64,000 nucleotides of DNA, taken from sequence record DRR723986_623; one strand, written 5' to 3'. The position numbers and the translations under genes were made by a program. This document shows, piece after piece, positions 45,204 to 64,000 of the stretch. Positions within the stretch are counted from its first letter, which is position 1. Each line of letters opens with the position of its first letter. The notes beneath the pieces were generated by a model. That model saw only the letters and a list, made by a program, of their open reading frames with translations, ran no database searches and was not told where the DNA came from.

Positions 45204-45241
45204 AAAGCTCTCAATTTTCCTCATGATTTCAGGATGATAAG

Positions 45242-45640: not shown

Positions 45641-45646
45641 AAGCTC

Positions 45647-46699: not shown

Positions 46700-47478
46700 G
46701 TGGTTTTTCACCAGCATGGCTTGCCTTGCGCGAACCGGTCGATCTGGCGGCTCGCAATGAGGACGTTGAAACCGCATTCTTCACGGCTCTCGGCAGTCAG
46801 CCGATGCGCATAATGGATCTCGCAAGTGGAGCAGGCTCGACTGTCTCGGCTCTTGCTCGGCATCGAGGCACTTCGATCGAATGGCTTTTGACCGACTACG
46901 ATCCGGCTCTGTTGGAAGTTGCCGGGCAGCGCTGGCAGGACAGGGTAACAACGCGGCAGATCGACCTTGCGAGCGATCTGGAGGAGCTGCCGTTTGCCGA
47001 GGTTGACGCGGTGACTACATCCGCTTTTCTGGACTTGGTCGCAGAGCCGTTTCTTGTCCGGCTGGTCGATCAGGTCGTGAAGGCGCGAAAACCGTTTCTG
47101 GCAAGCCTTACCTACGATGGCCGCGCGCTTTTCACCCCGCAACTTCCCTTTGATGCCGCGTTGTTGGCCGCACACAACACGCATCAGCTGTCTGACAAGG
47201 GGTTCGGTCCGGCTCTCGGTCCATCCGCTGCCATGCGTGCCATCGAACTGTTTCGGGATCGAGGCTACAAGGTGGTGCAGGGCCGGTCTGACTGGCAGGC
47301 AGACAGTTCGTCAGCGGATTTCCTGAAAGAGCTTCTCGGAGGCTGGTGCAACGTCGGCAGGGAAGTCGCGCTGGACGAGGCGGAACTGGCGCGATGGTGG
47401 TCGCTGCGGCAGGAACACATCACTTCCGGTCAACTCACTCTCAGCGTCGGTCACGTCGATTTCACTGCCTTGCCGTAA
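46696..47478 (+). CDS. SAM-dependent methyltransferase-like protein
   Basis: WLALREPVD.AAR, MDLASGAGS, DYDPALL, SAFLDL; ATGA overlap. Confidence 0.82.
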   Translation: MSGFSPAWLALREPVDLAARNEDVETAFFTALGSQPMRIMDLASGAGSTVSALARHRGTSIEWLLTDYDPALLEVAGQRWQDRVTTRQIDLASDLEELPFAEVDAVTTSAFLDLVAEPFLVRLVDQVVKARKPFLASLTYDGRALFTPQLPFDAALLAAHNTHQLSDKGFGPALGPSAAMRAIELFRDRGYKVVQGRSDWQADSSSADFLKELLGGWCNVGREVALDEAELARWWSLRQEHITSGQLTLSVGHVDFTALP

Positions 47479-48096: not shown

Positions 48097-48307
48097 GTTT
48101 TTGGAATGAATACTCTGCGGTAATGTTGAGTGTCTTGAAAGATTTTTTATGATTGAGGAAGTGTTAACTTAACAAACTTTAATAGTTCCTGTTTTGTAAT
48201 TTTTTACCATGCCCTTTAATTACAGTTTATCGTTTTTTGGCCTAAATGACGTCTCGGAACCCAAGGACCGGTTCAAGTGTAACCGTTAGAAAATGGTAAG
48301 GACTAAA

Positions 48308-48556
48308 ATGAAACAGACCATTCGGACCCTGCTGGCAAAACACGGTAATCTGCCGGTTTCTATCGACGACGTCGCGGACGGTGCTGACCTCTACGATGCC
48401 GGTCTGTCTTCGTTTGCATCCGTCCAGGTGATGCTGGCGCTCGAGGAAGAGTTCGATATCGAATTTCCGGAGCATTTGCTGAACCGCAAGTCTTTCTCCT
48501 CCATTGATGCGATCGACGCAGCTCTTACCGAAATCCTGAAAGAGCAGGCTGCGTAA
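48308..48556 (+). CDS. Acyl/aminoacyl carrier protein
   Basis: DLYDAGLSSFASVQVMLALEEEFDIEFP (phosphopantetheinyl Ser motif). Confidence 0.9.
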   Translation: MKQTIRTLLAKHGNLPVSIDDVADGADLYDAGLSSFASVQVMLALEEEFDIEFPEHLLNRKSFSSIDAIDAALTEILKEQAA

Positions 48557-48559
48557 TCC

Positions 48560-49741
48560 ATGACCGCCGCAGCCAAGATCACTGCCATGGGGTTGGCAGA
48601 TCGCGCCAAGCGGGCCGCCAAGGTCGCTTCCGAGTTTGCCGACAAGGTTGATGTGGAAGGCCGCTTTCCTGTTGAAGGCATGAACGCCCTGAAAGCGGAA
48701 CGCCTGATGGGTGTCATGATCCGTCCGGAATTCGGCGGGGAAGGTGCAACGCTGACCGAGATTGCTGATGTTTGCGCAATTCTTGGACAAGCCTGCGCGG
48801 CCACCGCGATGACTTATGCCATGCACCAGATCCAGATTGCCAGCCTGGCGGATTACGCCGTAGGCAGTGCCTGGCACGAAGGTTTCCAGAAGCGGATCTG
48901 CGATGAGCAGCTTCTGATCGCCTCAGCAACCAGTGAGGCGGGTATCGGCGGCAACTTGCGCAATTCGATCTGTGCGGTCGAGGTCGAGGGCGACACCGTG
49001 CGCCTGACCAAGGATGCGACCGTGATTTCCTACGGCGCCAATGCGGACGCCATCATGGTGACCTCCCGCCGGCATGTCGACGCGGCTCATTCCGACCAGG
49101 TTGCGACCATTTTCCTGAAGGATCAGTACACGCTTGAGCAGACCAGCAAATGGGATACGCTCGGCATGCGTGGAACCTGCTCCGACGGCTATATTTTCAA
49201 GGCGGAAGCTCCGGCTGACCAGATCCTGCCGCGCCCGTTTGCGGAGATTGCGGCCCAATCCATGCTGGCCGTTTCCCATCTTCTTTGGGGCGCGCTCTGG
49301 TATGGCATCGCTGCTGATGCGGTTGCCCGAGGGCAGGCATTCGTGAAGAACGCTGCGCGCAAGGCTCCCGGCCAGGTTCCTCCGGGAGCACTGCGTCTGG
49401 CGGAGGCGTCAAGCCTGCTGCAGCTGGTCAAGGCCAACGTCGTTGCCGGCCTGAAACAGTTCGAAGGCTGCAAGGGCGACAGTGATGCGCTCAATGCCAT
49501 GAGCTTCTCCGTTGCCATGAACAACGTGAAGATCGGCACGTCACAGACGATCCTGACAATCATCAACCACTGCATGCTGATCTGCGGGATCGCAGGCTAC
49601 AAGAACGGTACGCCGTTCAGCCTCGGACGCCACCTGCGTGACGCCCATTCGGCGCAGCTGATGATTTCCAACGACCGTATTCTGGGCAACACGTCCACGA
49701 TGCTCCTGGTCAACAAACAAGACACCAGTCTTTTGGGGTAA
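48560..49741 (+). CDS. Acyl-CoA dehydrogenase-fold flavoprotein
   Basis: [41 protein letters not shown]. Confidence 0.9.
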
Positions 49742-50652
49742 TGATGGACGCGCAAGTCTCTTTTCTGGATCAGCTCTTTGCCAAAGGCGTCCTGCATGAC
49801 AGCGGCGTCGACGGCCTTTATGCCCGCAGCGGCGAATTTGAAGACGTTATTGCCCGTTTCGAAAAATTTGCCCTCACATACGGTCAGGACGAGATCTCCG
49901 AAGCAATGGTGTTCCCGCCGGGAATGACCATGCAGGATTTCGAAACCAGCGGTTACATGAAGAACTTCCCGCAGTTGGCAGGAACAGTGCATGCCTTTTG
50001 CGGCAACGACCATGACCACATGGGGCTGTTGCAATGCATGGCGGCTGGCGACGACTGGTCCAAGGATCAGAAACCGACCCAGGTGGCTCTGACGCCCGCT
50101 GCCTGCTATCCGCTTTATCCGATCCTCTCGCGCCGTGGTGCATTGCCGGCAGAGGGAGCCTACGTAGCGCTGCAGTCCTATTGCTTCCGCCACGAGCCTT
50201 CCAAGGACCCGGCTAGGATGCAGATGTTCCGCCAGCGTGAATACGTGCGTGTCGGTTCCGCCGAACAGACCATGGATTTTCGCGAGACCTGGAAACAGCG
50301 CGGCTCGGACATGATGGAGCGGCTGCAGCTCCCGCATAACGTTGATGTCGCCAACGATCCCTTCTTCGGCCGAGCTGGCAAGATCATGGCGTCCGGCCAG
50401 CGTGAACAGGAATTGAAGTTCGAAATGCTTGTGCCGATCACGTCGGAAGAAAAGCCGACGGCCTGCATGAGCTTCAATTACCACATGGACAATTTCGGCA
50501 AGGCCTGGAACATCCGTCAGGCTGATGGAACGCCTGCCCACACCGCCTGTGTCGGCTTCGGTCTGGAACGACTGGCGCTGGCGCTCTTCCGCCATCATGG
50601 TTTCGACACGTCCAAATGGCCTGAAGGCGTCCGTGCCACGCTTTGGGGATGA
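49741..50652 (+). CDS. Amino acid:[carrier protein] ligase (atypical SerRS homologue lacking the tRNA-binding domain)
   Basis: [32 protein letters not shown] (motif 2), [24 protein letters not shown] (motif 3); adjacent ACP. Confidence 0.92.
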
Positions 50653-50663
50653 GGGGACGCAAC

Positions 50664-51686
50664 ATGACGCAAGCCGTGTTTGACCGCTTCAATGCGGCGA
50701 CCTACGTGCGTAGCCCGCTCCATTCCCAGGACCGGGACTGGCCCGAAACCAATTGCTATCTTGATGTCTGGATCGAGGTGTTGCCGTCGCTTGGTCTGCC
50801 GGCAGAGGCTTGTCTGTCCTATTCGGTCACCCAGGATTTTGAAGGGGACCAGTTCACCTTCTTCAAGGTGCCGCTGGAGGATCTGGAAGCGCTTTATGGC
50901 CTCAAGGTCACGGAACTTGCGATCTACGACCGGGTGGAAGCCCACGTCCGGCAACAGATCGAACGCGGCCGCTTGTCACTGGTCGAAGTCGACAGCTATT
51001 TCCTGCCGGACACACACGGTGTCGGTTATCACGAGGCCCACGGCAAGACCACGATCGCAGTCAACTGGATGGATTTTGAAGCCAGGACAATGGAATATTT
51101 CCATGGTCTGGGCCTGCACCGGCTGGAAGGTGACGATTTCGACGGGGTGTTCCAGCGCGGCGCACATGAAAAGCCGACGCCGTTCCTGCCATACACGGAA
51201 TTCGTGAAGGTTCCGGACACACTGCCAACGCCGGCTCACATCCTGAACGTTTCGGAAGGCCTTCTGCGCCATCACCTGAAGCGCCGCCCAAAGCAGAACC
51301 CGATTGCTGCCTTTGCACAGGTCTTCCCGGCACAGGTGGAAAAGATCTGCGAACGCGAGTTCGGCTTCTTCCATTTGTATGCCTTCAACACGCTGCGCCA
51401 GCTTGGTGCGAATTTCGAGCTGTTTTCGTCCTATCTCGAATGGCTGGTTGCGGAAGGCAGGGACGATCTGACCGAGGGTGTGCAAATGGCCAAGACCATT
51501 TCCTCCACCTGCAAGATGGTGCAGTTCAAACTGGCGCGCGCCGTCATGCGCAAGAAGTTTCAGGGGTTGGACGAAGGTTTGCTGCCGGCGGTCAACGCCT
51601 GGGACAACCTGATGCAACTTCTCGACACCCACTACGGTGATCAGGACGCACGTTTTACCCCCGTAGTCAGCGCTGCCGGGGCTTGA
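50664..51686 (+). CDS. DUF1839-family protein
   Basis: WPETNCYLDVWIE, DFEGDQFTFFK, EVDSYFLPDT, YAFNTLRQLG; directly follows the aa:CP ligase. Confidence 0.8.
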   Translation: MTQAVFDRFNAATYVRSPLHSQDRDWPETNCYLDVWIEVLPSLGLPAEACLSYSVTQDFEGDQFTFFKVPLEDLEALYGLKVTELAIYDRVEAHVRQQIERGRLSLVEVDSYFLPDTHGVGYHEAHGKTTIAVNWMDFEARTMEYFHGLGLHRLEGDDFDGVFQRGAHEKPTPFLPYTEFVKVPDTLPTPAHILNVSEGLLRHHLKRRPKQNPIAAFAQVFPAQVEKICEREFGFFHLYAFNTLRQLGANFELFSSYLEWLVAEGRDDLTEGVQMAKTISSTCKMVQFKLARAVMRKKFQGLDEGLLPAVNAWDNLMQLLDTHYGDQDARFTPVVSAAGA

Positions 51687-54137
51687 ATGATCGACCTGGG
51701 TGAAGTGACCTGGGCGCTGTCAATGACAGAGCCCGGTGCCTTTGAAACACCGCTTTCGACGGGGCATCAGTGGGATTTCGTTCCGGCGCACGTTCCGGGA
51801 ACCGTCGCCGGTGCTCTGACGGATGCAGGACTTTACGACCCGGAAAATCCCGTTCCCCTTCATGGCAAGGACGTCTGGTATGAAGCCTGGTTCGACGCCC
51901 CGCCGGGCCGATATCGCTTGCACCTGGAGGGGTTGGCGACCATTGCCGAGGTTTACCTGAACGACGTTGAGGTGCTGTCCAGCCGGAACATGTTCCGCAA
52001 ATACAATGTTCCCGTGGAACTGGCCGATCGCAACGTTCTGAAAATCTGCTTTCGTGCGCTAGAGCCGCACTTGAATGCAAAGGGACCGCGCGCCCGGTGG
52101 AAGCCACAGTTGGCAACCAGCCAGGGGCTGAGGCTCGTGCGGACGACGCTTCTCGGTCACATGCCCGGTTGGTGCCCGGAAATCCATGCAGTTGGCCCAT
52201 ACCGCCCGATCTGGCTCGAACCCCAGACGACACCGCGTATTGTTGAAAAGCATATCCTTGCGGACCTGGCTCCGGATGGCACAGCCGCGCTGGCAGTTAC
52301 GGTCAGGCTCGAAAATACGGATGCGGTTCCGGTGCTGACTTGCGCGGGAGCATCGGCGAAGATGAGCCTTCAGGACGACGGTTGCTATGCGGCTACCGTC
52401 CGTCCTGAGGGCGCCAAGCCCTGGATGCCGCACACACACGGCAAGCCTGCTCTTTACGACGTAACCGTTCAGGTCGCTGACAATACTCTTTCGCTGGGCA
52501 AGACAGGCTTTCGCCGGATCGAGGTGGACCACGGTGCTGATGGACGCGGCTTCGGTCTGAAGATCAACGGTGTGCCGGTCTTCTGCCGGGGCGCTGTCTG
52601 GACCAATGCGGATCTCCTGAACCTCTCGTCCAGCCGCGAAACCTATCGCCCGCTGTTGGAAAAAGCCCGGGACGCAGGCATGAACATGCTGCGCATCGGT
52701 GGGACGATGCTTTACGAGAGCCGCGCCTTCTTTGAGCTATGTGACGAATTGGGCCTTCTGGTCTCGCAGGACTTTCAGTTCGCCAACTACGATTATCCAG
52801 TGAAGGATGCCGTCTTCGTCGCGGAGGTTGAGGCGGAGCTGCGCGATCAGCTGGATGAAAGCATGGGCTGCCCCTCACTTGCCGTTCTGTGCGGTGGAAG
52901 CGAGATCTACCAGCAGGGCGCCATGATGGGGCTTTCCGAGGACCGCTGGAAGGGGCCGCTGTGCGAGGAGATCTTGCCGGCTATTGCCACACAGCTGCGG
53001 CCGGATGTGCCCTATGCAGCAAATTCGCCCTGCGGCGGGGTCTTGCCGTTCTCCCCCAACGAAGGCATCGCCCACTATTACGGCGTCGGGGCGTATCTGC
53101 GGCCTCTGGAAGACGCAAGACGAGCCGATGTCCGCTTTGCAGGTGAGTGCCTCGCGTTTTCCAATATTCCTGTCCAGCAAAGCCTGGAAGAAGGATTGCC
53201 GGTGAAACCGGGGCATGATCCACGCTGGAAGGCACGGGTGCCGCGGGACCGCGGCGCCGGCTGGGACTTCGAGGATGTGCGCGATCACTATCTGAAGCTG
53301 CTCTATGATGTCGATCCAGCCGCGCTTCGCTACGGCGATCCGGACAGATACCTCGACCTCGGACGGGCGGTCACCGGTGAAGTCATGGCCGAGACCTTTT
53401 CCGAATGGCGACGGCCCGGGTCCAATTGCCAGGGCGCACTGGCCTGGACCCTTGCCGACTTCTCGATTGGTGCCGGGTGGGGACTTGTTGATGCAGCCGG
53501 ACGGCCCAAACCCGCGTGGTATGCCCTCAAGCGCGCATTCAGGCCGGTAATTGCCTGTGTCACCGATGAAGGCACGAACGGCCTTGCCATTCACGTCCTC
53601 AATGAAAGGGCAGAGGAAAAGCCGGTCAGGATAAGTATTGCCTGCCTGAGGGATGGCCAGCTGCCGGTGGTTACAGGAGACAAGGAGCTGTTGTTGGCTC
53701 CGAACAGTGCGCAGACGCTCAATGCGGTGGACCTGATCGGAGCCTTCTTCGACGTCACCTACGCCTATCGTTTCGGCCCACCCTCGCATGATGTAACCGT
53801 GGTACGTCTGTTCGATACGCAAACCGGAGAACTCATATCCGAGGTGCATCATTTCCCGCTCGGCCGAGCACTGCATCGCCATTTCGATGCGCCCGAGGTG
53901 AGTGTGGAACAGGACGAGGCCGGCAGTTGGTCACTGATGATCCGCGCCAGGCGCTTCCTGCAATCGACCGTCGTTGCCATTCCCGGATTTGAGGCGGAGG
54001 ATAACTGGTTCCATCTGGCTCCGGGCGAGGCGAAGTGCATTCAACTGCAACAAACGCCAGACGAAGAACGCGATGATCAGGCAGCCCCCAAGGGGCAACT
54101 TACGGCCTTGAACTTCGCCGGGCGCGTGCCCTTCTGA
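51687..54137 (+). CDS. GH2 beta-mannosidase-like glycoside hydrolase, no obvious signal peptide
   Basis: VPGTV, EGLAT.A.V.LN, NMF, INGVPVFCRG, MNMLR.GG...YE...F..LCDELGLLV.QDF.FAN, LCGGSE, FAGE. Confidence 0.88.
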   Translation: MIDLGEVTWALSMTEPGAFETPLSTGHQWDFVPAHVPGTVAGALTDAGLYDPENPVPLHGKDVWYEAWFDAPPGRYRLHLEGLATIAEVYLNDVEVLSSRNMFRKYNVPVELADRNVLKICFRALEPHLNAKGPRARWKPQLATSQGLRLVRTTLLGHMPGWCPEIHAVGPYRPIWLEPQTTPRIVEKHILADLAPDGTAALAVTVRLENTDAVPVLTCAGASAKMSLQDDGCYAATVRPEGAKPWMPHTHGKPALYDVTVQVADNTLSLGKTGFRRIEVDHGADGRGFGLKINGVPVFCRGAVWTNADLLNLSSSRETYRPLLEKARDAGMNMLRIGGTMLYESRAFFELCDELGLLVSQDFQFANYDYPVKDAVFVAEVEAELRDQLDESMGCPSLAVLCGGSEIYQQGAMMGLSEDRWKGPLCEEILPAIATQLRPDVPYAANSPCGGVLPFSPNEGIAHYYGVGAYLRPLEDARRADVRFAGECLAFSNIPVQQSLEEGLPVKPGHDPRWKARVPRDRGAGWDFEDVRDHYLKLLYDVDPAALRYGDPDRYLDLGRAVTGEVMAETFSEWRRPGSNCQGALAWTLADFSIGAGWGLVDAAGRPKPAWYALKRAFRPVIACVTDEGTNGLAIHVLNERAEEKPVRISIACLRDGQLPVVTGDKELLLAPNSAQTLNAVDLIGAFFDVTYAYRFGPPSHDVTVVRLFDTQTGELISEVHHFPLGRALHRHFDAPEVSVEQDEAGSWSLMIRARRFLQSTVVAIPGFEAEDNWFHLAPGEAKCIQLQQTPDEERDDQAAPKGQLTALNFAGRVPF

Positions 54138-54158
54138 CGCCTTTCTGGAAGCGACGGA

Positions 54159-55466
54159 TCAGCCTGCGGTTTCGTCTGGTTCGTGCGCAGGTGCCTTTGT
54201 CCAGAAAATGAAGAACCAGGTGCCCGCGGTCAAAGCAATCTGGACGCCAAAGCGGAAAAGCGCTGCGCCGGCCAAGCCTCCTAACGCAGCGCCAAGGCTG
54301 ACGACGGGTATCAGCAGGAGGCTGGTGCTGATGAGCAGCGCCATCCGCACGCGTTGACGACCGGTGGCTCGCAAGATGTCCGCCCCTACACCGGAAAGCC
54401 CCATCAGGAGCGGATAAAACGCAAGGCACATAACGACTGTCGGTGTTTCTGCGAAATCTTCACCCAGAACAAGGGGAATGAAACCGGCGATCAGCAACAG
54501 GAAAACAGCGACCGGCAGGGCGAGGAATACCGTCACCGGCAACAGCTTGACGCCGAAAGCGAGGCTGCTTGCCTGCCCATCTTGTGCCTGGCGAAAATGG
54601 CGGGTGTAGGTCGCATAGAGAAACGCTCTGACGGGCGCTGAGGCTGCGTCGATGATGCGGAACCCGGCTGCGTACTGCCCGCCTGCATCTGCGCTCAAAG
54701 TGTGAACGACCACCGGCTTGTCCAGATCCTTCATGCCGCCAATGGCAAAAAACTCGATGCAATAGAGAAGGCTGAGTTTCAGGTCGTCCCGGATCAGGGT
54801 GAAGGTCGGCCGGCCGAGATCACGCAGAACAAGCCAGCAAGCCGCAAGAGCAGACAGAATTCCGGCGGCGAAATACCACCACGCCCATTCCTGGAGCGTG
54901 AGACTTCCGGGGAGAAGCGTGGCAACGAAAAGGAAAGCGAGTTTCAACGAAGCAGCCAGAACATTGATGACGATCTGTTTTCTTGCCCGGTCGAAGGCCA
55001 TGTAGGACTGCGCGGACAAGATCACCAGCTTTGTGAGGAGCAGATCCGAAACAGTGACAATCGCGATAGTCGATAGCGGAACGGTATCGCCGATGAGGAC
55101 GTACAACAAAGCGATTGTCCCGGGCAGGACAAACGGAAAGGTAATCCCCATCATGATCAGGGAATGCCCGAGGTATCTGCCGAAAGACTGAGGCTCAACC
55201 GCGACCCGCTGGAGGAGAAGGTATTCACTGCCCAACCCGACCAGGAAACCGGCCATGATTGAGACGCTGACGATGGTGATGAACAGACCATAGTCTGCTG
55301 CCCCCAAAGCGCGCGAAATGAACAGGAAAAAGACGAGCTGAATGACGAGCAAGAGACCAAAATTGATCGTGTAGGAAATTGTATTGGCAACAAGCGGGCG
55401 TCTTGAGAGGCCAAGGGCCTTGTCATAAAGCGCGCGAAATTTTCTCGATGCCGAACTGGAATTCAT
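54159..55466 (-). CDS. Wzx-type polysaccharide flippase
   Basis: Multi-TM; SRALGAADYG, D......GQYAAGFR; start at MNSSS preferred. Confidence 0.82.
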   Translation of the reverse strand: MNSSSASRKFRALYDKALGLSRRPLVANTISYTINFGLLLVIQLVFFLFISRALGAADYGLFITIVSVSIMAGFLVGLGSEYLLLQRVAVEPQSFGRYLGHSLIMMGITFPFVLPGTIALLYVLIGDTVPLSTIAIVTVSDLLLTKLVILSAQSYMAFDRARKQIVINVLAASLKLAFLFVATLLPGSLTLQEWAWWYFAAGILSALAACWLVLRDLGRPTFTLIRDDLKLSLLYCIEFFAIGGMKDLDKPVVVHTLSADAGGQYAAGFRIIDAASAPVRAFLYATYTRHFRQAQDGQASSLAFGVKLLPVTVFLALPVAVFLLLIAGFIPLVLGEDFAETPTVVMCLAFYPLLMGLSGVGADILRATGRQRVRMALLISTSLLLIPVVSLGAALGGLAGAALFRFGVQIALTAGTWFFIFWTKAPAHEPDETAG

Positions 55467-55701
55467 TGACACGAAATTGCCTCGAGGCGTGGGCCGTTGA
55501 TCGAAAAAAGCGGGATCCGTGGCCGCTGGCCTTGGACCGCAGGAGCGGATTTTGTGTATCTGCCCCCCGGATAAGTCACAACAGAAACTAGGTGCCAAAC
55601 CTGACTGCGCCGTTAATAGGTAGGCAACGCGAACCTGCACAAACTATTTTAACTTCCCTGCGTCAAGGATCTGGCGTCCTGTTCGAAAAGGCGGAGAAAA
55701 A

Positions 55702-56382
55702 ATGCTGGCAAAAACGCAGGTTCTCACTTTCCACGGTATTGGTGTACCAGCGGTGCCTGTTTCGCCGGAAGAGCGCCATTACTTCGTCCCGATAGAGACT
55801 TACCAGCGCACAATTGAACGCCTTCCTGCACTTGAGCAGAAACACGGAGTGAAGCTGGAAATCACCTTTGATGATGGCAACCTGTCTGATTTCGAGGTTG
55901 GGCTGCCAGCCCTAGTGGAGGCGGGCCGGCCAGGTCGTTTTTTCGTTCTGGCTTCACGTATCGGGGCAAAGGGCTATCTGACCGCGGAACAGATGCGGGA
56001 GATTGTTTCGTCGGGATCGGTCATCGGCAGCCACGGCCACGACCATGTCGACTGGCGCAAGCTGGATGCTGCTGGCTTTCAACGGGAACTTTACGACGCT
56101 CGAAAGAAAATCGAGGATGCGGTAGGGGCTGCTGTCACAGAAGCGGCGATCCCCTTCGGTGCTCTGGACGCGAACGTTTTGCATCGTCTCAAGGAAGCCG
56201 GGTACGGGCGGGTCTTCACAAGCACACCGGGACTTGCCTATCAGACGGCATGGTTCTGTCCGCGCTTTTCGCCTGCAAATGGCTTTGACCCGGATCGTGA
56301 CATCCCGCCGATGTTTTCCGCCAAGAAACGCCTGAAAAGCTCCCTCTATGCCTTCGCACGGCGCGCGAAATTCCGCATTTGA
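55702..56382 (+). CDS. CE4 polysaccharide deacetylase
   Basis: LTFH, ITFDDG, GSHGHDH, IPFG. Confidence 0.9.
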   Translation: MLAKTQVLTFHGIGVPAVPVSPEERHYFVPIETYQRTIERLPALEQKHGVKLEITFDDGNLSDFEVGLPALVEAGRPGRFFVLASRIGAKGYLTAEQMREIVSSGSVIGSHGHDHVDWRKLDAAGFQRELYDARKKIEDAVGAAVTEAAIPFGALDANVLHRLKEAGYGRVFTSTPGLAYQTAWFCPRFSPANGFDPDRDIPPMFSAKKRLKSSLYAFARRAKFRI

Positions 56383-56413
56383 AGGCATGCCCGAGGCGTA
56401 GGCGCCAGCTGGT

Positions 56414-57322
56414 TCAATCCGGTTTTCTATAGAGCTCTGCAAGAGGCAGGTTGAATACAGCGCGCAGCTTGCCTGTGTTGAGCGCAAGTTTTTGCCGCAT
56501 CCGGAAAGAACGCCCCCTGTCGAGAAGCCGGAATGCGAGCGCTAAAACACCGGCAACGGCACATTTTGCCAGTGCTCCAAATGCGAAAAAAACGTGCCAG
56601 AAAGGGTCTGGATGCCGGGCGAGGCGCATCTGGCCATAGGATTGGCCTGACCTTGTCGCGCGGCTGAGAATGAACTTCGTCGACAATCGGTCTTGTGGAA
56701 CATGTTCGTGGGCAATCGCATCGTCCGTGGCAAAGATACGTGCCCCGCGTTCGGCTGCTTGAGCAAAGAAGATGGTGTCTTCGCCACCCGTCCGGCCATA
56801 GGCTTCATCAAATCTCAGTTCCAGCGCACGAACAAAACCAACCCGCACCAGCGTGTTGCCGCCCCGGCCGGTGTAAAGCCGTTTTCCCCTGTGCCCCCAG
56901 TCGGTATAGAGCGGGTTCGCACGCCGCATCCACTCGGGCGTATTGTCCGGATAACGTGGTTTTACCGGGCCGATCACGACGTCTGCGTTGAAGTCTTTCT
57001 GGCAGGCGAAGAGTTTTTCCAGCCAATCGCGTTCCACCCATTCGTCGTCATCGACAAATATCAGCCAGTCGCCATCAGCTGCGTCGAGCAATGCGTTGCG
57101 GGCTGAAGAGATATTACCGCTCGCCACGGCAAGACAGGTCACGTCCAGCGACTTGATGGGATGACGGGCAACGAGTTTGGTCGCCGCACCGGATTTGGAA
57201 TCATCGGCCACCAGCACGTTGAGCTCCATCCCGACCGGTTTGGTCACCGCCGCCAGGGAACGTAACGTATCGAGCAAGGTTTCACGGCCAATGCTCGCTA
57301 TGGCGACGGAAACTTTTTCCAT
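56414..57322 (-). CDS. GT2 glycosyltransferase (ExoM-like)
   Basis: VADD, NISSARN, FVDDDE, GGEDT.FF. Confidence 0.9.
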   Translation of the reverse strand: MEKVSVAIASIGRETLLDTLRSLAAVTKPVGMELNVLVADDSKSGAATKLVARHPIKSLDVTCLAVASGNISSARNALLDAADGDWLIFVDDDEWVERDWLEKLFACQKDFNADVVIGPVKPRYPDNTPEWMRRANPLYTDWGHRGKRLYTGRGGNTLVRVGFVRALELRFDEAYGRTGGEDTIFFAQAAERGARIFATDDAIAHEHVPQDRLSTKFILSRATRSGQSYGQMRLARHPDPFWHVFFAFGALAKCAVAGVLALAFRLLDRGRSFRMRQKLALNTGKLRAVFNLPLAELYRKPD

Positions 57323-57474
57323 TCAGACTGGGCTCCGAAGCAGAGTTGGAAGCAATCAACAGGATGTGAGACGATCTTTTAATGCACCAGAAGTTCCTGC
57401 AGCATTATTAAACAATGGCTTAGAAAAAAGGCGCAAGATGCCCCGGAATTTGGAAGGACCGCCTTTCACCCGCC

Positions 57475-59292
57475 ATGAAGCTGGAGCTCGCACGTGATAT
57501 GAACCGGCAAGGTTTTGATACCTCCTCTGCCACACCTGTTGCCGGAACGTCTGCTGTGGCCTTGCCGATCTCGTTCGATGGGCTTGCTGGTTATTTTCAT
57601 CCAGCTGCGGGGGGCACAGCAATCCTGCTTTTGAGCCCCTGGGGGTATGAAGAGCTGTGTTCCCGGAAAAGCTACAGGATGCTCGGCGAAAAATTCGCTG
57701 CATCCGGGTACCCATGTCTGCGGTTCGACTATCCGGCAACCGCGAATTCACACGGTGACAGCGCGGACATTCAGGACAAGTCGGCATGGCAGGCTTCCGT
57801 TCGAACAGCCCTTTCCGAACTCAAGAGATTGGCAAACCCGGATCGGGTTGTCGTGGTCGGACAGGGGATAGGTGCAAGTCTCGCAAGCAACCTGGCAGCA
57901 GACGGAGAGATTGCAGGACAAGTGCTACTGGCGCCGGTTGCCCAGGGACGAGCTTATCTGCGGGAACTCGCAGCCTGGACTGCGTTGACGCAGCCGACGT
58001 TCCTGGTCAGTGCGTCGGATGGTCCCGAAGGCGGGTTGATGGCTGGTGGTTTCGTGCTCTCGGCCGCAACGGCCGACGAAATCAAATCGCTCAATCTCTA
58101 CAAGACGGAATTGCCCTCCGGATTGAAAACATTGCTTGTTCAAAGGGCCGACCATCCGGGCGATCAGAAACTTGCAGATCACTACGTCGAAAACGGTTTG
58201 CAGTTCGAGAGCCTGTCGTTTGAGGGGTACGTCGACTACGTCTCCGACCCGACCCTGTCCGTCCCCCCGGTTCAAACGCTGGATCGGATCGTAGCCTGGG
58301 TGAAGGCCAATTTCCCGGCAGGGCAATTGGAGACTACAGCTCTTGCCGAAATCTCTGCCGTGTCGGAGCCATTGCCAGGTGTCGAGGAGGAAGCGCTGCG
58401 TTTCGGGCCCGACAAAATGTTCTTCGGCGTGCTCGCGTGCCCTCGTGGCAAATGTGCGGAAACGGCGGTGATCATGCTCAATTCCGGATATGACCATTCC
58501 ATTGGCTGGGCACGCATGTCGGTCGGCTTTGCCAGGTCTCTTGCAGAAAGCGGCTGCGCGGTCCTGCGCACGGATCTGGCTGGTATCGGTGAGAGCTGTT
58601 ATTGGCCGGATCAGTCGTCCCAGGTTCTTTATTCCGACAGGCAACAGGAGGATGTCAGAGCCGCCGTCGGGTTCGTCAAGGAACGAACCGGGGCGAAGAA
58701 CATTATCCTGTTCGGCCGTTGCAGCGGTGCCTATCTCGCCCTTCTGGCGGCTGCAGACGATGACCGCGTCACTGCGGCCTTTCTGGTGAACTCACGCAAA
58801 CTGGTCTGGGATCCGGACGAAAACGTGGACAAGGCTATCCGTGAGCCGATACAGACGCTGTCCAGCTATGGACGCAAGGCGGTCGATTCAGAGACACTGA
58901 AACGGGTTCTGTCAGGGGAAATCAATCTGGTCTCCGCTCTGAAAAAGGTAACCCGGCCCGTGAAGTTGAAGGTCGACCGAACCCTGGCACCTGTTCTAGG
59001 CAATTTGTCACGCCATTACCGGCTCTTCAAGGTCCTGACCGGTCGCCTTCAGAAACTCGAGCAGCGTGATGTCCCAGTGTCTCTCGTTTATAGCGATAAC
59101 GACCGGGGGCTTCTTGAGTTACACAACTGGTTCGGCGTCGACCGGCATGGATTGAAAGCCTATCCGAACATCGAGATGCACGGCCTGCAGGATGCGGATC
59201 ATAACCTGACTCCTATCGCCGCCCGTCAACAGATGTTCGCCCTGTTGACTGACTTCGTTGCGAAAGTTTCCGCTTCAAGATCTCGCAAGTGA
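57475..59292 (+). CDS. Tandem alpha/beta-hydrolase-fold protein
   Basis: Domain 1 LRFDYPATANS.G with elbow GQGIG; domain 2 RTDLAGIGES with elbow GRCSG and C-terminal ADHNL. Confidence 0.82.
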   Translation: MKLELARDMNRQGFDTSSATPVAGTSAVALPISFDGLAGYFHPAAGGTAILLLSPWGYEELCSRKSYRMLGEKFAASGYPCLRFDYPATANSHGDSADIQDKSAWQASVRTALSELKRLANPDRVVVVGQGIGASLASNLAADGEIAGQVLLAPVAQGRAYLRELAAWTALTQPTFLVSASDGPEGGLMAGGFVLSAATADEIKSLNLYKTELPSGLKTLLVQRADHPGDQKLADHYVENGLQFESLSFEGYVDYVSDPTLSVPPVQTLDRIVAWVKANFPAGQLETTALAEISAVSEPLPGVEEEALRFGPDKMFFGVLACPRGKCAETAVIMLNSGYDHSIGWARMSVGFARSLAESGCAVLRTDLAGIGESCYWPDQSSQVLYSDRQQEDVRAAVGFVKERTGAKNIILFGRCSGAYLALLAAADDDRVTAAFLVNSRKLVWDPDENVDKAIREPIQTLSSYGRKAVDSETLKRVLSGEINLVSALKKVTRPVKLKVDRTLAPVLGNLSRHYRLFKVLTGRLQKLEQRDVPVSLVYSDNDRGLLELHNWFGVDRHGLKAYPNIEMHGLQDADHNLTPIAARQQMFALLTDFVAKVSASRSRK

Positions 59293-59310: not shown

Positions 59311-61659
59311 TCACGCGTATTTACGGCGTGATGGCGGCGGAGTGCCGGTCATCGTTCGCACGAGACCGGAAGGTCGACCTTCTGCGATCGTAAGCAGGTC
59401 ACGCGACAGGATCGGCATCGAGATCTGATCTTCTTCACGCTCGGCAACCGTGACCAGGAATTGCGTCGAAAGGCCTGCGAGCGGATCATCTTCGACAAGT
59501 TGTGGCAGGGCAACGCCATCGATGATTACAAGATCGTAGTCACGCGCGATGTCTGCGAAATCGAAAGCTTCGCGGATGTTCATCCGGTGGTGCTTGTACT
59601 TCGGCAATCCGGAGACCAGCGACAGAAAGGAAATATCCAGCTCGTCGTAGTCGACAACCCTTTCGCGAAGCGTTCCGCCAATGTCTTCCATATCGTCGAT
59701 GCTCAGGTCGTGGCTGAGCATGCGCTGTTTCGGTTCACCATCGGCGAGGAGCACGTGCAATCCGCGCTGGGCCGCCCCGAGGGCGAGGGCAAGGGCAGCA
59801 ATGGTCTGGCCATGGCCAAGGGCGGGAGAGGTCAGAAAGACGATCCGCGTGCCGTTTTGGGCAGGCGCGCTCTGGATCGATGCAATGATCTGGTCAACGC
59901 CTTGTCCGAAAGACCATCCAGGTCCGGCTTCGTCTGAATAAAACTGCTCGATCGCATCTTGTACGGCAGAGATGGCGTCGGAGCTGAGCGGACGGACACT
60001 GCCGTTTTCGTCGGTTTCCGTCAGCCAGGGCAGCTGGCTGATAACTTTCAGCCCGGGTTCTGATTGGGGCACCTGCCTGGAGGGAGTGCGTTTGCTTTTC
60101 GTCCGCGATCCCGGCAAGCCCACTGATGAGCGTGCATTGTGGGCGGTGTCGACAGCCGTGGTTACGGGAGCAAGCGACTGTGCAGGGCCGGCGACGGCCA
60201 TTGCAGGTTCGGGGTTCTGCAGGAACTCCGGCAACAGGTGTTTTTTGGCAATGCGAATGGCTTCGCCGCCAACGGCGATTATGGTGCCGAACAGCAGACC
60301 CAGGATTCCGGCCAGTACCACCATGATCTTCCGTTTCGGGTAGACCGGGCTTTCCGGTGGAATGGCAGGCGAAATGATGCGGGCATTGGGTAGAACAACT
60401 TGGTCGAGCTGCGAAATTTCCTTGGCCCGGCTCAGTGCTATCTCATAAAGCTGCCGTGTTGCCTGTGCTTCCGTTTCCAATTCACGCAACCTGATGGAAG
60501 CCGCCTGGTCGACGTCGGAAAGGTTTCGCGTGGAATCGAGCTGCTGCTCGAGCCTGGAAACCCGTTCCTGATTGACCTGGACATCGATGCGTGTGGATTC
60601 CGCAATCCGCCTGATTTCGTCCCGGATGAGATTGCGCAACCGTTCCAGCTGGGATCTTGCCTGCACGACAGACGGATGTGAGGGCAGAAGATCGGCCATC
60701 AGCTGAGCTTCCGTGCGTGCAGCCGTGGCATATTGCTGGCGAAGTGAGGAGATCGTGGGGGAATTGACCACATCTCCGATGGATTCCGCGTCGACACCGC
60801 TTTGCAGAACCCGCTGGATCTCATCGTATTTGGCGGTTGCTTCCGCCAGTGCCGCTCGGGCATCGATGAGCCTGGAATTCAGTCCGGTCAGTTCCTGTCC
60901 GGTCAGCAGCGACCCCTCGTCGGAGTTCTGCAGCTTGTTGGCCGCGCGGAATTTCTGGATTTCTTCTTCGGCTTGCCTCAGGCGTTCCCGCAAATCCACC
61001 AGCCGATCATCGATCTGGGCGGCGGCTTCGTCCGAGGCCAGGTCAACTTGCCGTTTCTGGTCGGACAGATAGCTTTCGGCGATCGAATTCGCCAGAACGG
61101 CTGCCTGGACCGGTGAAGGAGATTCCGCGGCAATATTGATGACGAAGGTTTGACCAACGCGCTTGACGCTGGTTGCATCTGCAAGAGCTTCGACCGCGGC
61201 GGTCTCCTGCGCTTCAAGCGTTGCCGCGTCCTTCTTGGTTGCCCCGAAGATCAGGCTTTTGAACTGGCTCATCAGACCCGGCTTGCCTTCGCCGAAATGA
61301 GGGTCTTCAGCCAGGTTGTTTTCCCGGGCGACGGGTCGCAGCACTGTGTCGGAATGGATGACCGACATCTGACTGTCGATCACTTCCGAGCCTTGTCCCG
61401 TGCGGCTCGGGCGGTTCGGGTCATCGAAAGGCTGGCGCACAGTTGGGTCGAACAGGACTTGCGAGGACGCTCTGAAGATCGGTGTGATGGTCAGGGAGTA
61501 GGCGGCAGTCAACGCTGCAAAAACAAATGCAATTGCCGCGATCAGGAAGATGCGGCGGCGCAAGACCTGAAAAATGGACAGGATGTCCAGAGCAATGGCG
61601 TCGCGGCCTTGAAGGGCCGCCTTATCGTAAGCCGGGTTTTCTACCTGTCTGGGGTCCAC
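59311..61659 (-). CDS. Wzc/ExoP/GumC-like polysaccharide co-polymerase
   Basis: N-terminal TM, coiled-coil periplasmic region, PSHP, IISPA.PP..P.YP, second TM, degenerate P-loop domain. Confidence 0.9.
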   Translation of the reverse strand: MDPRQVENPAYDKAALQGRDAIALDILSIFQVLRRRIFLIAAIAFVFAALTAAYSLTITPIFRASSQVLFDPTVRQPFDDPNRPSRTGQGSEVIDSQMSVIHSDTVLRPVARENNLAEDPHFGEGKPGLMSQFKSLIFGATKKDAATLEAQETAAVEALADATSVKRVGQTFVINIAAESPSPVQAAVLANSIAESYLSDQKRQVDLASDEAAAQIDDRLVDLRERLRQAEEEIQKFRAANKLQNSDEGSLLTGQELTGLNSRLIDARAALAEATAKYDEIQRVLQSGVDAESIGDVVNSPTISSLRQQYATAARTEAQLMADLLPSHPSVVQARSQLERLRNLIRDEIRRIAESTRIDVQVNQERVSRLEQQLDSTRNLSDVDQAASIRLRELETEAQATRQLYEIALSRAKEISQLDQVVLPNARIISPAIPPESPVYPKRKIMVVLAGILGLLFGTIIAVGGEAIRIAKKHLLPEFLQNPEPAMAVAGPAQSLAPVTTAVDTAHNARSSVGLPGSRTKSKRTPSRQVPQSEPGLKVISQLPWLTETDENGSVRPLSSDAISAVQDAIEQFYSDEAGPGWSFGQGVDQIIASIQSAPAQNGTRIVFLTSPALGHGQTIAALALALGAAQRGLHVLLADGEPKQRMLSHDLSIDDMEDIGGTLRERVVDYDELDISFLSLVSGLPKYKHHRMNIREAFDFADIARDYDLVIIDGVALPQLVEDDPLAGLSTQFLVTVAEREEDQISMPILSRDLLTIAEGRPSGLVRTMTGTPPPSRRKYA

Positions 61660-61803: not shown

Positions 61804-63117
61804 CTAGTTCTGCGGACGATTGTCCCAGGTGCGAACCACTGCATGCGGCAGCAGCGCGGCAAGCAGGAAAATCAGCCAGTTCAGGGAAAAGGAACGAAAC
61901 CAGGCGCTTTCCAGCATGTTGTGACAGGTGACGAAGAGGATTAACGAATAGCAGAGAAAGGCTATCCGGTAGTCCAGCGAAACGACCCGGGCTGCGGAAA
62001 ACAGAGCGGTCAGGATAACCAGGAACAATAGCGAAATTCCGACAATGCCGAGTTCGAGCATGACATCGAGATAACCGTTATGAGCTTGGATCAGCAAAAT
62101 GACGAAACCCGGCGCTTCACGGAAGGCAATTGAATCGGACCCCGTGGCCCAGAAAGACGCATAGCCCTGGCCAAGTACCGGGGCTCTGGAAATCACATCC
62201 ACGACAAACGCCCAGATGAACGTCCGGCCGGTGTAGGTCTCGTCATTGAACAGGAACAGAGACAGGTCCGAGAACCCGAACCGCGTAAGGAGCGAGAGGA
62301 AGGACAGAAGAACGGCGCCGGTAACCGCTCCGAAAATCAGCAGCAATGCCGCATTGATACGGAAGAGGAACGCCATGCCGACTGCAATATAGGCGATGAC
62401 CGGCATGAGGACGGCAAGCCCGAGGGATGTTTTCGACTGACTGAGAACAAGCAGGCCAAAAGCCAGTGCCGAAATGATCAGCATGCCGAAACGTTTCAGA
62501 AAACCGCGCGAAACCAGAAACCCGTAGATATTGAACATCATGGCCAAAGCCATGACCGCGCCCAGATTGTTTTTCTGGGTGTAGATGCCTGCGTGACCGA
62601 TAGGTGTCGGCGGTAGCAGGACGACTGCAACCGCATTCATCAGAACAACGGTATTCATCAGCAGCATCAGTCGGCTTAGCAGTGAGCGGGCGTCGTCCGT
62701 AAAAGAAACCGAAATCACAAGGCTCATCACAATGATGATCTGCAAGACCACGCGGCGAAACGCAATTCCGGGTGCATGAGACCAGAGCACACTCGTGACA
62801 GCGAGCAGCAGATAAAGCATCAGGATCCAGATAAGCGGACTTTTCAGAACCGTAAACGCGTTAAGCAAGCGCCGCCCCGCCGATACCAGCAGAACCATGA
62901 ACAGGCAGATCCAGAACAACTGGTTCAGTGCGTTGGACTTTGACGCGCTGATGTTGGCCGCGGTGTCTTCACCTCCGGACGACACCAGAAAGAATGGGCT
63001 GATCAACATCGGATAGGCGAGCAGCAGCACCGGAATCCAGTTGAAGATCCTGTCCAGCAACGTTTGCCCGTGCATGGCGGCCTGTGGCCCGGACTGTTCA
63101 ACGGGGTGAACTGTCAA
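61804..63117 (-). CDS. Wzy polymerase / O-antigen ligase family (ExoQ-like); start uncertain
   Basis: GIYTQKNNLG, SQSKTS, TYTGRTFIW, GQGY..FW, QAHNGYLD...ELGIVG. Confidence 0.9.
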   Translation of the reverse strand: MTVHPVEQSGPQAAMHGQTLLDRIFNWIPVLLLAYPMLISPFFLVSSGGEDTAANISASKSNALNQLFWICLFMVLLVSAGRRLLNAFTVLKSPLIWILMLYLLLAVTSVLWSHAPGIAFRRVVLQIIIVMSLVISVSFTDDARSLLSRLMLLMNTVVLMNAVAVVLLPPTPIGHAGIYTQKNNLGAVMALAMMFNIYGFLVSRGFLKRFGMLIISALAFGLLVLSQSKTSLGLAVLMPVIAYIAVGMAFLFRINAALLLIFGAVTGAVLLSFLSLLTRFGFSDLSLFLFNDETYTGRTFIWAFVVDVISRAPVLGQGYASFWATGSDSIAFREAPGFVILLIQAHNGYLDVMLELGIVGISLLFLVILTALFSAARVVSLDYRIAFLCYSLILFVTCHNMLESAWFRSFSLNWLIFLLAALLPHAVVRTWDNRPQN

Positions 63118-63281: not shown

Positions 63282-64000
63282 TCATAGCGCGTCTGCGTTG
63301 AGCCCCAAGGTATCGACCATAGCCGGCTCGACGGTTCTTTTGACGTTGTCGGTCATCAGACCGAAGCCCTCGTAGTAGTCCCACAACGCCCAGCCAAAGC
63401 CGCGTTCCTCCACCACTGTGCGGACGTCCTTGATCCAGGCAAGCCTGCTTCCATCGTCCGGAAGTCCTTTCGGGGGACGGATAGCACTGAATTCGCCAAG
63501 CACGATCTGGTCAGGGGAAATGTCATGTTTTTCCGCCCACTGCGAGATCGTGTCAAAGCGGCTTTCAATGAAATTCCGGTCGGGCCTTTCACGTTTATAG
63601 TAGTCCCTGACACCGTCCATCGCCTTGTCGAAGGCATAGTCGGGAACGTCGACATCGGCTGCCTTTAGGGCGGCGATATGCTGACGTGTCCTCTCTTCGG
63701 CAGTCTCCACGTCACCCGCTGTCCAGGGATAGCTGAGGCCCGCGATATAGCGGAGAGGGTCCAGTACCCAGGGGAGGGATTGATGGGTGAAATAGAAGGG
63801 CTCGTAGAAATGGAAGTCGACGATGATCTTGTCGTCATAGCCGTCGAGACTCATGTACTCGAGGCCTTCCATGGACCGCCAGCAGCCCGGGGTAAGGACA
63901 ATCGGCAGGTCTGGCGCAACACTGCGCGCCCTGTCATACAGCTGCTTTTGAGAGACAGACCAGTCCTGGCTGTCTTCTTCGAAACAGACGCCCTGCGGCT
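63282..64000 (-). CDS. GH5 glycoside hydrolase (5' part outside the window)
   Basis: Frame open to the window edge; (E)P at the edge, DFHFYEP, VLGEFS, GWALWDY. Confidence 0.85.
   Translation of the reverse strand, partial: PQGVCFEEDSQDWSVSQKQLYDRARSVAPDLPIVLTPGCWRSMEGLEYMSLDGYDDKIIVDFHFYEPFYFTHQSLPWVLDPLRYIAGLSYPWTAGDVETAEERTRQHIAALKAADVDVPDYAFDKAMDGVRDYYKRERPDRNFIESRFDTISQWAEKHDISPDQIVLGEFSAIRPPKGLPDDGSRLAWIKDVRTVVEERGFGWALWDYYEGFGLMTDNVKRTVEPAMVDTLGLNADAL

Follow-up and report, generated by a model that had tools for sequence, protein, structure and literature searches.

A carrier-protein cassette with a predicted DUF1839 transacylase beside Wzx/Wzy polysaccharide genes in a Roseibium-type bacterium

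Introduction

Amino acid:[carrier protein] ligases (aa:CP ligases), reportedly first described in 2010, have a core like that of seryl-tRNA synthetase (SerRS) and load a small amino acid on a dedicated carrier protein. In a 2022 review their biological role is called unknown (PMC9437257). Here we describe a five-gene cassette around such a ligase in a stretch of DNA of 64,000 nucleotides from the sequence record DRR723986_623 (the window, from the first letter of which all positions are counted). The cassette begins at position 48308 and encodes an acyl carrier protein (ACP), a flavoprotein with the acyl-CoA dehydrogenase (ACAD) fold, the ligase, a protein of the family DUF1839 and a GH2 protein. 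It lies directly beside genes for the assembly of a polysaccharide and one for a tandem alpha/beta-hydrolase-fold protein. An earlier note on this DNA had proposed that an amino acid is loaded, oxidized on the ACP and moved to the repeat unit of an exopolysaccharide (EPS). In our judgement the chances are about even that the five cassette genes and the tandem hydrolase form a self-contained cytoplasmic thiotemplate module that puts a small aminoacyl group on a lipid-linked sugar.

Several described systems come close to parts of this locus. In DltABCD and AlmEFG an ATP-dependent ligase loads alanine or glycine on a small carrier protein for a cell-surface polymer. Exosortase loci are said to combine the hydrolases 1 and 2 with an AMP-forming ligase and an ACP. 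In PMC12865890, CtaG is presented as a papain-like ligase for carrier-protein-bound substrates that works via a Cys-His-Asp triad, with the same fold and triad in BtrH and AsbE; CcbD is described there as acylating an amino sugar from a carrier protein, and AziU2/U3 are named as functionally unrelated.

Our literature search found only one paper that mentions DUF1839 or PF08893, the 2023 classification of papain-like enzymes by Ozhelvaci and Steczkiewicz (PMC10318531). The DUF1839 site is read there as Cys-(Thr/Ser)-His, and DUF6005, a family in the AsbE neighbourhood, is listed as a remote homologue. Its supplement shows DUF1839 genes consistently beside GH2, aa:CP ligase, ACAD and ACP genes in proteobacteria. 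The neighbourhood of the cassette has thus been in print since 2023.

Results

The cassette enzymes and the tandem hydrolase

Genes were identified from a listing of open reading frames (ORFs) together with Pfam and NCBIfam scans, and domain models were run on 22 ORFs of the window between 39 and 64 kb. All twelve genes named in the earlier note were found in their places. As it had also said, none of the 22 ORFs encodes a nonribosomal peptide synthetase or a polyketide synthase. The six genes of the proposed module are the following.

48308..48556 (alternative start 48293), plus strand: dedicated ACP; PP-binding E 2.4e-7, NF005480 120 bits against a cut-off of 72
48560..49741, plus strand: ACAD-fold flavoprotein without the catalytic glutamate; Acyl-CoA_dh_N E 1.5e-8
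49741..50652, plus strand: aa:CP ligase; NF005479 492.5 bits against a cut-off of 357
50643..51686, plus strand: DUF1839 protein with papain-like and helical domains; PF08893 E 7e-128
51687..54137, plus strand: GH2 beta-mannosidase-like protein; Glyco_hydro_2_N2 E 4e-16, beta-mannosidases in the PDB E 3e-42 and 4e-39
57475..59292, plus strand: tandem alpha/beta-hydrolase-fold protein of 605 aa; TIGR03101 and TIGR03100 matches, both under the cut-offs

By their coordinates the five core genes are tightly packed: 3 bases separate the first two, the next two junctions overlap by 1 and 10 bases, and the last two genes abut directly. DUF1839 and GH2 are in the same frame with one stop codon between them (51684-51689), and in the window this stop stands directly before the ATG. 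Apparent DUF1839-GH2 fusions in four other loci (L021, L026, L036 and L037) were rejected as artefacts, each having one in-frame stop between the two genes that tblastn had read through.

An AlphaFold model of DUF1839 built from 35 relatives (predicted local distance difference test, pLDDT, 88.6) matched CcbD with a Z score of 19.1 and a root mean square deviation of 3.6 Å over 290 aligned residues. AziU3/U2 and CtaG were matched at Z 17.9 and 17.4, and the next match, an unrelated protein, came at Z 8.3. The modeled protein thus has the bipartite fold of a papain-like and a helical domain (Z 19.1 to 16.4 over 271-292 residues), and Foldseek gave its fold relatives E-values of 6e-7 to 3e-3. 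Cys38 was present in 72 of 74 relatives, His154 in all 74 and Asp165 in at least 97% of the 74, with Asp165 invariant in alignment A1. The spacing of the three residues resembles that of Cys11, His128 and Asp144 in CtaG. Only one second Pfam family recurred in the DUF1839 set, namely BtrH_N, which was matched by 10 of 35 members, always weakly (best E 0.09). The alignment of the model to CcbD and these weak matches speak for the BtrH-like off-loading role that the earlier note had suggested, and we predict from the modeled fold that DUF1839 is a carrier-protein-dependent transacylase. Ralstonia and many Cupriavidus loci carry two DUF1839 paralogues, one of them on the opposite strand past GH2 (L040: 3124-4257 and 13585-14853).

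The ligase has 303 aa and a SerRS-like class II core without a tRNA-binding domain; SerRS models of the archaeal type are matched at their residues 311-503. Residues 9-300 match the two structures of Bradyrhizobium Bll0957 (3mey, E 7e-87; 4h2w, E 3e-89) over the whole of Bll0957. Across 81 sequences Cys122, Glu167 and Cys270 show a conservation of 97% or more, and they recur in the alignment with Bll0957; after the structure of that protein we take them to be zinc ligands. Agrobacterium Atu2573 is presumably a further relative of this ligase and carrier protein type. The ACP most likely starts at 48308, since its NF005480 match begins at residue 6. It has the PP-binding domain and an attachment serine for phosphopantetheine, Ser40 of the 87-aa form, within the motif GLSS; this serine was found in 74 of 77 relatives and is invariant in the 29-row alignment A3. 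A weak second NCBIfam match was to DltC (27.5 bits against a cut-off of 68). Both the ligase and the ACP pass their curated family cut-offs, and this membership together with the similarity to Bll0957 supports the view that the ligase would load the dedicated carrier protein.

For the flavoprotein the best solved relatives were the amino-sugar N-oxygenases KijD3, ORF36 and DnmZ (E 1.5e-12 to 1.4e-10), followed by butyryl-CoA dehydrogenase (E 2e-9). A look-up in the ESM Atlas returned only clusters called 'acyl-CoA dehydrogenase family'. In a hand-mapped alignment with butyryl-CoA dehydrogenase, Ile369 stands at the position of the catalytic glutamate (C-terminal YEG), and isoleucine is found there in 75 of 76 relatives; reading of the hand-extended alignment found no catalytic glutamate in helix G. 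With a base glutamate at neither position the protein does not classify as a catalytic acyl-CoA dehydrogenase, and a normal alpha,beta-dehydrogenase is ruled out because this residue is missing. Alpha,beta-dehydrogenation of glycine or alanine on a carrier is in any case unlikely. The sequence leads us to predict an oxidase or oxygenase that acts on the carrier-bound aminoacyl group, and the constant company of ACP, ACAD and ligase genes described below fits a flavoenzyme working on the loaded carrier. The parallel drawn earlier with BtrO of butirosin biosynthesis went too far, as BtrO is luciferase-like and the present protein has the ACAD fold.

The tandem hydrolase matches TIGR03101 with residues 43-208 (70.5 bits, cut-off 202.75) and TIGR03100 with residues 314-595 (110.7 bits, cut-off 168.45), and is related to both families without being a member of either. 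A tandem alpha/beta-hydrolase is thus present as the earlier note had it, with a correction for each half. Among 39 tandem hydrolases the nucleophile position of the first half is occupied by glycine (26) or arginine (11), leaving this half without a nucleophile. The second half has cysteine in place of serine: G-x-Cys416-Ser-Gly, Asp543 and the pair Asp575-His576 are present in all 39. An AlphaFold model (pLDDT 86) showed two alpha/beta domains, and a fold search with it returned generic alpha/beta hydrolases only (E about 1e-10), which is uninformative on the role of the cysteine enzyme.

In some genomes of the Rhizobium type the hydrolase is joined to the C-terminus of the flippase Wzx. Such a fusion was found in Rhizobium sp. 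L43 (L030: 15689-19000, 1103 aa, no internal stop), in the 1101-aa protein P0001 from a large protein collection and, within the even sample introduced below, in three of the four genomes that represent one genus (L101-L103). The GxCSG motif is retained in both fusions in which it was checked. A plasmid of the actinobacterium Tsukamurella tyrosinosolvens (L081 10068-18909) carries a minimal version within a polysaccharide cluster: ligase and ACP are accompanied there by a phosphopantetheinyl transferase and a tandem-type hydrolase with the GxCSG motif, and ACAD, DUF1839 and GH2 are missing.

In the GH2 protein Glu406 (GGSE) aligns with the NNE motif of BtMan2A and Glu487 with its SEF motif. 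Both are invariant in 73 of 73 relatives, and we take the aligned glutamates of BtMan2A to be the acid/base and the nucleophile. The asparagine that normally precedes the acid/base is replaced by serine in all 73. Judged by these residues, the GH2 protein looks catalytically competent.

Occurrence in other genomes

The cassette was followed in two sets of genomes. One set was found with peptide patterns and comprised 76 loci, to which five plasmid loci and the window were added (82 sources); it is dominated by Stappiaceae (28) and Cupriavidus/Ralstonia (35). ACAD, ligase, DUF1839 and GH2 genes occurred together in 73 of the 82 sources. In 66 of these 73 cassette loci the flanks encode Wzx, Wzy, a priming transferase or a co-polymerase with 350 aa or more; the tandem hydrolase was found in 37 and ManC in 18. 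In the Cupriavidus/Ralstonia loci the ACP is preceded by a PAP2 protein and a priming transferase, and a Crp-like regulator, ManC, Wzc and often a second DUF1839 are present as well.

The other set was drawn evenly from the Pseudomonadota. DUF1839 was present in 16 of 401 genomes and in 12 of 212 genera. Fifteen of 17 matches make up the even sample, leaving out G001, a relative of the window, and one 2.5-kb contig. ACP, ACAD, ligase and GH2 genes stood beside DUF1839 in all 15 loci, the tandem hydrolase was present in ten, and polysaccharide assembly genes were found at seven (L101-L103, L105 and L107-L109), or in three of seven when counted by family. As a rough general expectation, chance would put a polysaccharide gene this close in only a few percent of cases, and on that expectation we judge the linkage to be far above chance. 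The linkage across genomes that the earlier note had called for is therefore real (66/73 and 7/15) and at the same time partial. The cassette is an autonomous unit, and about half of the sampled lineages have it within a polysaccharide locus. A six-gene unit including the hydrolase was found on Azospirillum and Mycetohabitans records. In Rhizobium-type loci (L104, L106 and L030) the cassette lies near efp, a paralogue of the PoxA/EpmA-like class II synthetases and a radical SAM gene, probably by coincidence.

On a Burkholderia cenocepacia replicon the cassette (L116 13370-21858, with L139) is flanked on one side by a Crp-like regulator and on the other by a minus-strand sigma-54 activator that has a VpsR domain. 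The genes run in the order priming transferase (minus), Crp-like regulator, ACP, ACAD, ligase, DUF1839, GH2, sigma-54 activator (minus) and two small ORFs, followed by ManC, two GT4 glycosyltransferases, and then Wzc, GH5, Wzx, GT4, tandem hydrolase and Wza, all six on the minus strand. The tandem hydrolase gene has one internal stop here. According to PMC5552954 and PMC9684580, berB (Bcam1342, a sigma-54 activator) and berA (Bcam1349, CRP/FNR type) stand beside the polysaccharide cluster bepA-L with 'genes in between', and PMC3584217 lists Bcam1334 as a TIGR03100-type hypothetical protein of the experimentally studied Bep polysaccharide cluster. The gene order fits the published map of berA, 'genes in between', berB, bepL and bepK, and the cassette is probably the block in between.

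The ligase scored above its cut-off in 24 of the 401 genomes. Eight of these 24 had no DUF1839 or GH2, and all eight kept the triad of ACP, ACAD and ligase. At three of these loci (L129, L130 and L136) the triad is accompanied by a Cys/Met-metabolism pyridoxal phosphate (PLP) enzyme, a protein of the homoserine O-succinyltransferase family and a GNAT protein, beside sulfate-assimilation genes (cysH, cysNC-type), and a Steroidobacteraceae locus resembles this setting. Two loci have Abhydrolase_3, an AMP-binding enzyme, a short-chain dehydrogenase/reductase (SDR) and a GINT1_N-domain protein, one has an AMP-binding enzyme and a thiamine pyrophosphate enzyme, and at two the neighbours are unknown proteins. 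Two large genomes of one genus (family f29) have the triad without DUF1839 and GH2. At a further locus, L070, the triad lies with an AMP-binding enzyme and a PLP decarboxylase. We regard the settings of L129, L130, L136 and L070 as a separate branch related to sulfur or amino acids. ORFs after the ligase in L131 and L132 were considered as DUF1839-like and rejected (hhalign probability 0.1%). The triad seems to serve as a general source of a modified aminoacyl thioester, and DUF1839 and GH2, with or without the tandem hydrolase, seem to be its sugar-directed branch. It had been hoped that this locus would assign a function to aa:CP ligase clusters as a whole, which is too wide a claim with the triad in other settings in eight of the 24 ligase-positive genomes.

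Polysaccharide genes, localization and flanks

The remaining genes of the locus are given here.

54159..55640, minus strand: Wzx-type flippase; Polysacc_synt E 2.1e-6, a marginal 27.8 bits against a cut-off of 28.2; ten hydrophobic windows
55702..56382, plus strand: CE4 polysaccharide deacetylase; Polysacc_deac_1 E 5e-19
56414..57322, minus strand: GT2 glycosyltransferase; Glycos_transf_2 E 2.8e-17
59311..61659, minus strand: polysaccharide co-polymerase (Wzz/GNVR) of 782 aa; GNVR E 8e-10, Wzz E 1.4e-9
61804..63117, minus strand: Wzy-type polymerase; Wzy_C E 4e-13; twelve hydrophobic windows
63282..64000, minus strand: GH5 glycoside hydrolase, cut off by the end of the window; Cellulase E 2.3e-7

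Flippase, polymerase and co-polymerase of a Wzx/Wzy-dependent locus are thus all present, the flippase on a marginal Polysacc_synt match. The co-polymerase, previously called Wzc, has the Wzz and GNVR domains, and no kinase/ATPase domain was found in it at E 0.01. It reaches 210 bits with TIGR01005 (cut-off 412). The protein is of the size of Wzc, and its C-terminal part resembles a degenerate P-loop that lacks the lysine typical of Walker A. The CE4 motifs TFDDG and HGHDH are readable in the deacetylase sequence.

A simple hydropathy scan found no signal peptide or membrane segment in any cassette protein, in CE4 or in the tandem hydrolase, and from this we conclude that the chemistry should be cytoplasmic and take place before flipping. 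No MBOAT- or DltD-type protein was detected among the 22 ORFs at 39-64 kb or in the other annotated loci.

The DNA comes from a Roseibium/Labrenzia-type alphaproteobacterium. Ligases sharing 98% identity with that of the window were found in Roseibium aggregatum IAM 12614 and in two related isolates, and the nearest genome compared, G001, has a Wzy 100% identical to that of the window. The complete GH5 in G001 has 437 aa (Cellulase E 5.7e-18). Beyond the end of the window the remainder of GH5 is followed in that genome by a GT4, a hexapeptide transferase, a glycosyltransferase of the WecG/TagA family and then cobalamin genes. Among Stappiaceae and two further members of the Hyphomicrobiales, the order of cassette, Wzx, CE4, GT2, hydrolase and co-polymerase persists while ligase identity falls from 98% to 77%.

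Upstream of the cassette lie rpoN, hpf, ptsN, mdoH (minus strand), a Zn-dehydrogenase-like gene, a gene of the 6-pyruvoyl-tetrahydropterin synthase (PTPS) family, a GT4, a methyltransferase and a cytochrome b561. The interval between mdoH and the cassette holds a plus-strand block at 44181-47478 of the Zn-dehydrogenase/BchC-like, PTPS-family, GT4 and methyltransferase genes. This block accompanies the cassette in conserved synteny at most loci of Roseibium and Stappia and is missing elsewhere, and its product could be a glycosylated pterin-like compound or another small sugar conjugate. A promoter scan gave one sigma-70-like site before the cassette (48126-48153); the total of three sites is not enriched over the shuffle mean of 3.8. 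The sigma-54 -24/-12 consensus pattern gave 78 matches where 77 were expected and none upstream of the ACP gene.

Discussion

Taken together, the genes suggest the following route. The SerRS-like ligase would use ATP to load a small amino acid on the phosphopantetheine arm of the ACP, as shown for its relatives; by homology to Bll0957 the residue is expected to be glycine or alanine. The ACAD-fold flavoenzyme would then modify the aminoacyl group on the carrier. The amine is the most likely target, through N-oxygenation or oxidation, as the lack of the base, the closest relatives and the constancy of the triad suggest. From its fold, DUF1839 would take over the group on Cys38 and pass it to a sugar amine to give an amide, as in CcbD, BtrH and CtaG. 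The domain of the tandem hydrolase with Cys416, Asp543 and His576 may be a second thioester-handling enzyme, located at the membrane by Wzx and acting as a second transferase or as an editing thioesterase; we infer its place at the flippase from the Wzx fusions and the Tsukamurella locus. In this locus the acceptor would most likely be the undecaprenyl-diphosphate-linked repeat unit of the flanking Wzx/Wzy polysaccharide, with transfer before flipping, and its amine might be freed by the cytoplasmic CE4 deacetylase. The weakest and a speculative step is that of GH2, which might supply or trim a beta-manno-type sugar. The hints to it are the beta-mannosidase likeness, a WecG/TagA-type transferase here and in three other Roseibium loci, and ManC in 18 of the 73 loci.

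Compared with the earlier proposal of a loaded and oxidized amino acid that is moved to the EPS repeat unit, the loading, the off-loading by DUF1839 and the linkage find support, and the Dlt-like picture and the BtrO parallel do not.

A number of observations weigh against such a module. By sequence, DUF1839 matched no solved structure under E 0.8 in single-sequence or profile searches, and the modeled fold is shared by AziU3/U2, so that the fold alone is no proof of transacylation. Eight of the 15 loci of the even sample had no polysaccharide assembly gene within about 7-10 kb by Pfam on the flanks; one of these eight had GH5 only, one GT2 and a thioesterase only, and one a phosphopantetheinyl transferase directly before the ACP. 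The five-gene cassette stands alone on plasmid records of Rhizobium leguminosarum and Caballeronia. Neither Wza nor a priming transferase was found among the ORFs of the window at 39-64 kb and the 20 kb past its end in G001, though both may be encoded at another place in the genome. The localization calls come from a crude hydropathy scan only, and the proposal leaves unexplained what a hydrolytically competent GH2 protein does in the cytoplasm. CE4 was near 23 of the 73 pattern-found cassette loci and near one of the 15 in the even sample.

The last of these counts also limits one idea of the earlier note, in which the deacetylase was the source of the acceptor amines. As a general source it was overrated; CE4 is a local add-on, and the release of amines by it applies to Stappiaceae-type loci only.

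A different product would account for several of these points. The cassette could make a separate small glycoconjugate or aminoacyl sugar by the logic of lincosamides and butirosin, on a free or nucleotide-linked sugar obtained via GH2, with polysaccharide neighbours that are incidental or regulatory. The eight loci without nearby assembly genes and the stand-alone units of five or six genes in Rhizobium, Azospirillum, Mycetohabitans and Caballeronia are consistent with this, as are the retained catalytic residues of GH2 and the fact that the nearest folds, CcbD and CtaG, serve small-molecule pathways. However, no exporter or further tailoring gene is conserved with the cassette, the tandem hydrolase is fused to the flippase in some genomes, and polysaccharide genes do lie near the cassette at seven of 15 loci. 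We consider a small product unlikely, with perhaps a minor share of the overall probability.

The aminoacyl group could also be meant for another glycan of the envelope than the flanking polymer, such as lipopolysaccharide, capsule, periplasmic glucans or a peptidoglycan precursor. Stand-alone cassettes need a target that is encoded elsewhere, mdoH lies 4 kb upstream in Roseibium genomes, and AlmEFG puts glycine on the lipid A of Vibrio via a carrier protein. Against this, the synteny from cassette to co-polymerase holds over the range of 98% to 77% ligase identity, the Wzx-hydrolase fusions tie the system to a flippase, and the mdoH block is absent outside the Stappiaceae. Such a target appears to us a little less probable again.

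That GH2 and the hydrolase serve to edit or salvage, by removing or recycling an aminoacylated sugar, would agree with the intact catalytic residues of GH2 and with the presence of two hydrolase-fold proteins. An ATP-using ligase, a dedicated carrier and, in other genomes, an adjacent phosphopantetheinyl transferase are hallmarks of biosynthesis, however, and the hydrolase has cysteine instead of serine and a dead first half, which makes this very improbable. A Dlt-like route as imagined in the earlier note, in which the aminoacyl group crosses the membrane and is added to the finished polymer outside the cytoplasm, has in its favor the general analogy of ligase and carrier protein and the weak DltC match of the ACP, and is hardly credible with no MBOAT- or DltD-like protein at 39-64 kb or in the other annotated loci and with candidate transferases that all lack a signal peptide or membrane segment.

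Returning to the cytoplasmic module, its parts can be joined in a bolder reading, which we offer as improbable in its entirety: the Cys-type tandem hydrolase would act at the flippase and give the repeat unit a glycyl or alanyl mark, N-oxidized beforehand on the carrier protein, and this mark would license export. If this were true, lipid-linked glycans would bear a mark of a new kind, written by the cassette. The position of the cassette between the two Bep regulators that respond to cyclic di-GMP in Burkholderia would then make the mark part of the biofilm matrix programme.

Several observations made here had no match in the literature searched (bioRxiv supplements excluded): the hydrolase with its dead first and Cys-type second half, the joining of this protein to Wzx, the reduced system of an actinobacterium, the linkage figures of the even sample, the non-glycan branches of the triad, and the bep-like placement by berA/berB-like regulators. 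The locus belongs to a culturable, non-pathogenic marine bacterium and has the cassette in one block with flippase, cytoplasmic deacetylase and polymerase, which makes the purpose of an aa:CP ligase approachable. Experiments are narrowed down by the CcbD-like fold of the DUF1839 model, the Cys hydrolase domain that is fused to Wzx elsewhere, the flavoprotein without a base and the invariant GH2. With its place by berA/berB-like regulators and next to a bep-like cluster, the Burkholderia cenocepacia cassette directs attention to a polysaccharide on which genetic work exists.

Among known systems, the Bradyrhizobium Bll0957 pair is like the pair of the window in its SerRS-like core without a tRNA-binding domain, in the Cys/Glu/Cys residues and in a carrier protein encoded nearby; the pair of the window differs in belonging to a DUF1839-GH2 cassette inside a Wzx/Wzy locus. 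In the Dlt and Alm systems the ligases are ANL adenylating enzymes and transfer runs via membrane proteins, whereas here we find an aminoacyl-tRNA synthetase-like ligase, an added flavoenzyme step and predicted soluble Cys transferases. CcbD/LmbD, CtaG, BtrH and AsbE have the two-domain fold, the N-terminal cysteine and the carrier-protein donor that we propose for DUF1839, and the product of CcbD is an amide on an amino sugar. DUF1839 is only 9-15% identical to CcbD, CtaG, BtrH and AsbE, with no detectable sequence relation, and its carrier is loaded by another type of enzyme. The acceptor in the CcbD/CtaG-type systems is an antibiotic precursor and for DUF1839 presumably a glycan.

The halves of the tandem hydrolase match exosortase-A-associated hydrolase 2 and then hydrolase 1 (TIGR03101 and TIGR03100), in this order, but form one fused chain that scores under both cut-offs. 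Bcam1334 of the Bep cluster is listed as being of the TIGR03100 type, the model that the second half of the tandem hydrolase matches under its cut-off. The neighbourhood in PMC10318531 is the same cassette, to which the present work adds the tandem hydrolase, the linkage to Wzx/Wzy and the reading of DUF1839 as a candidate for transfer of the CcbD/CtaG type.

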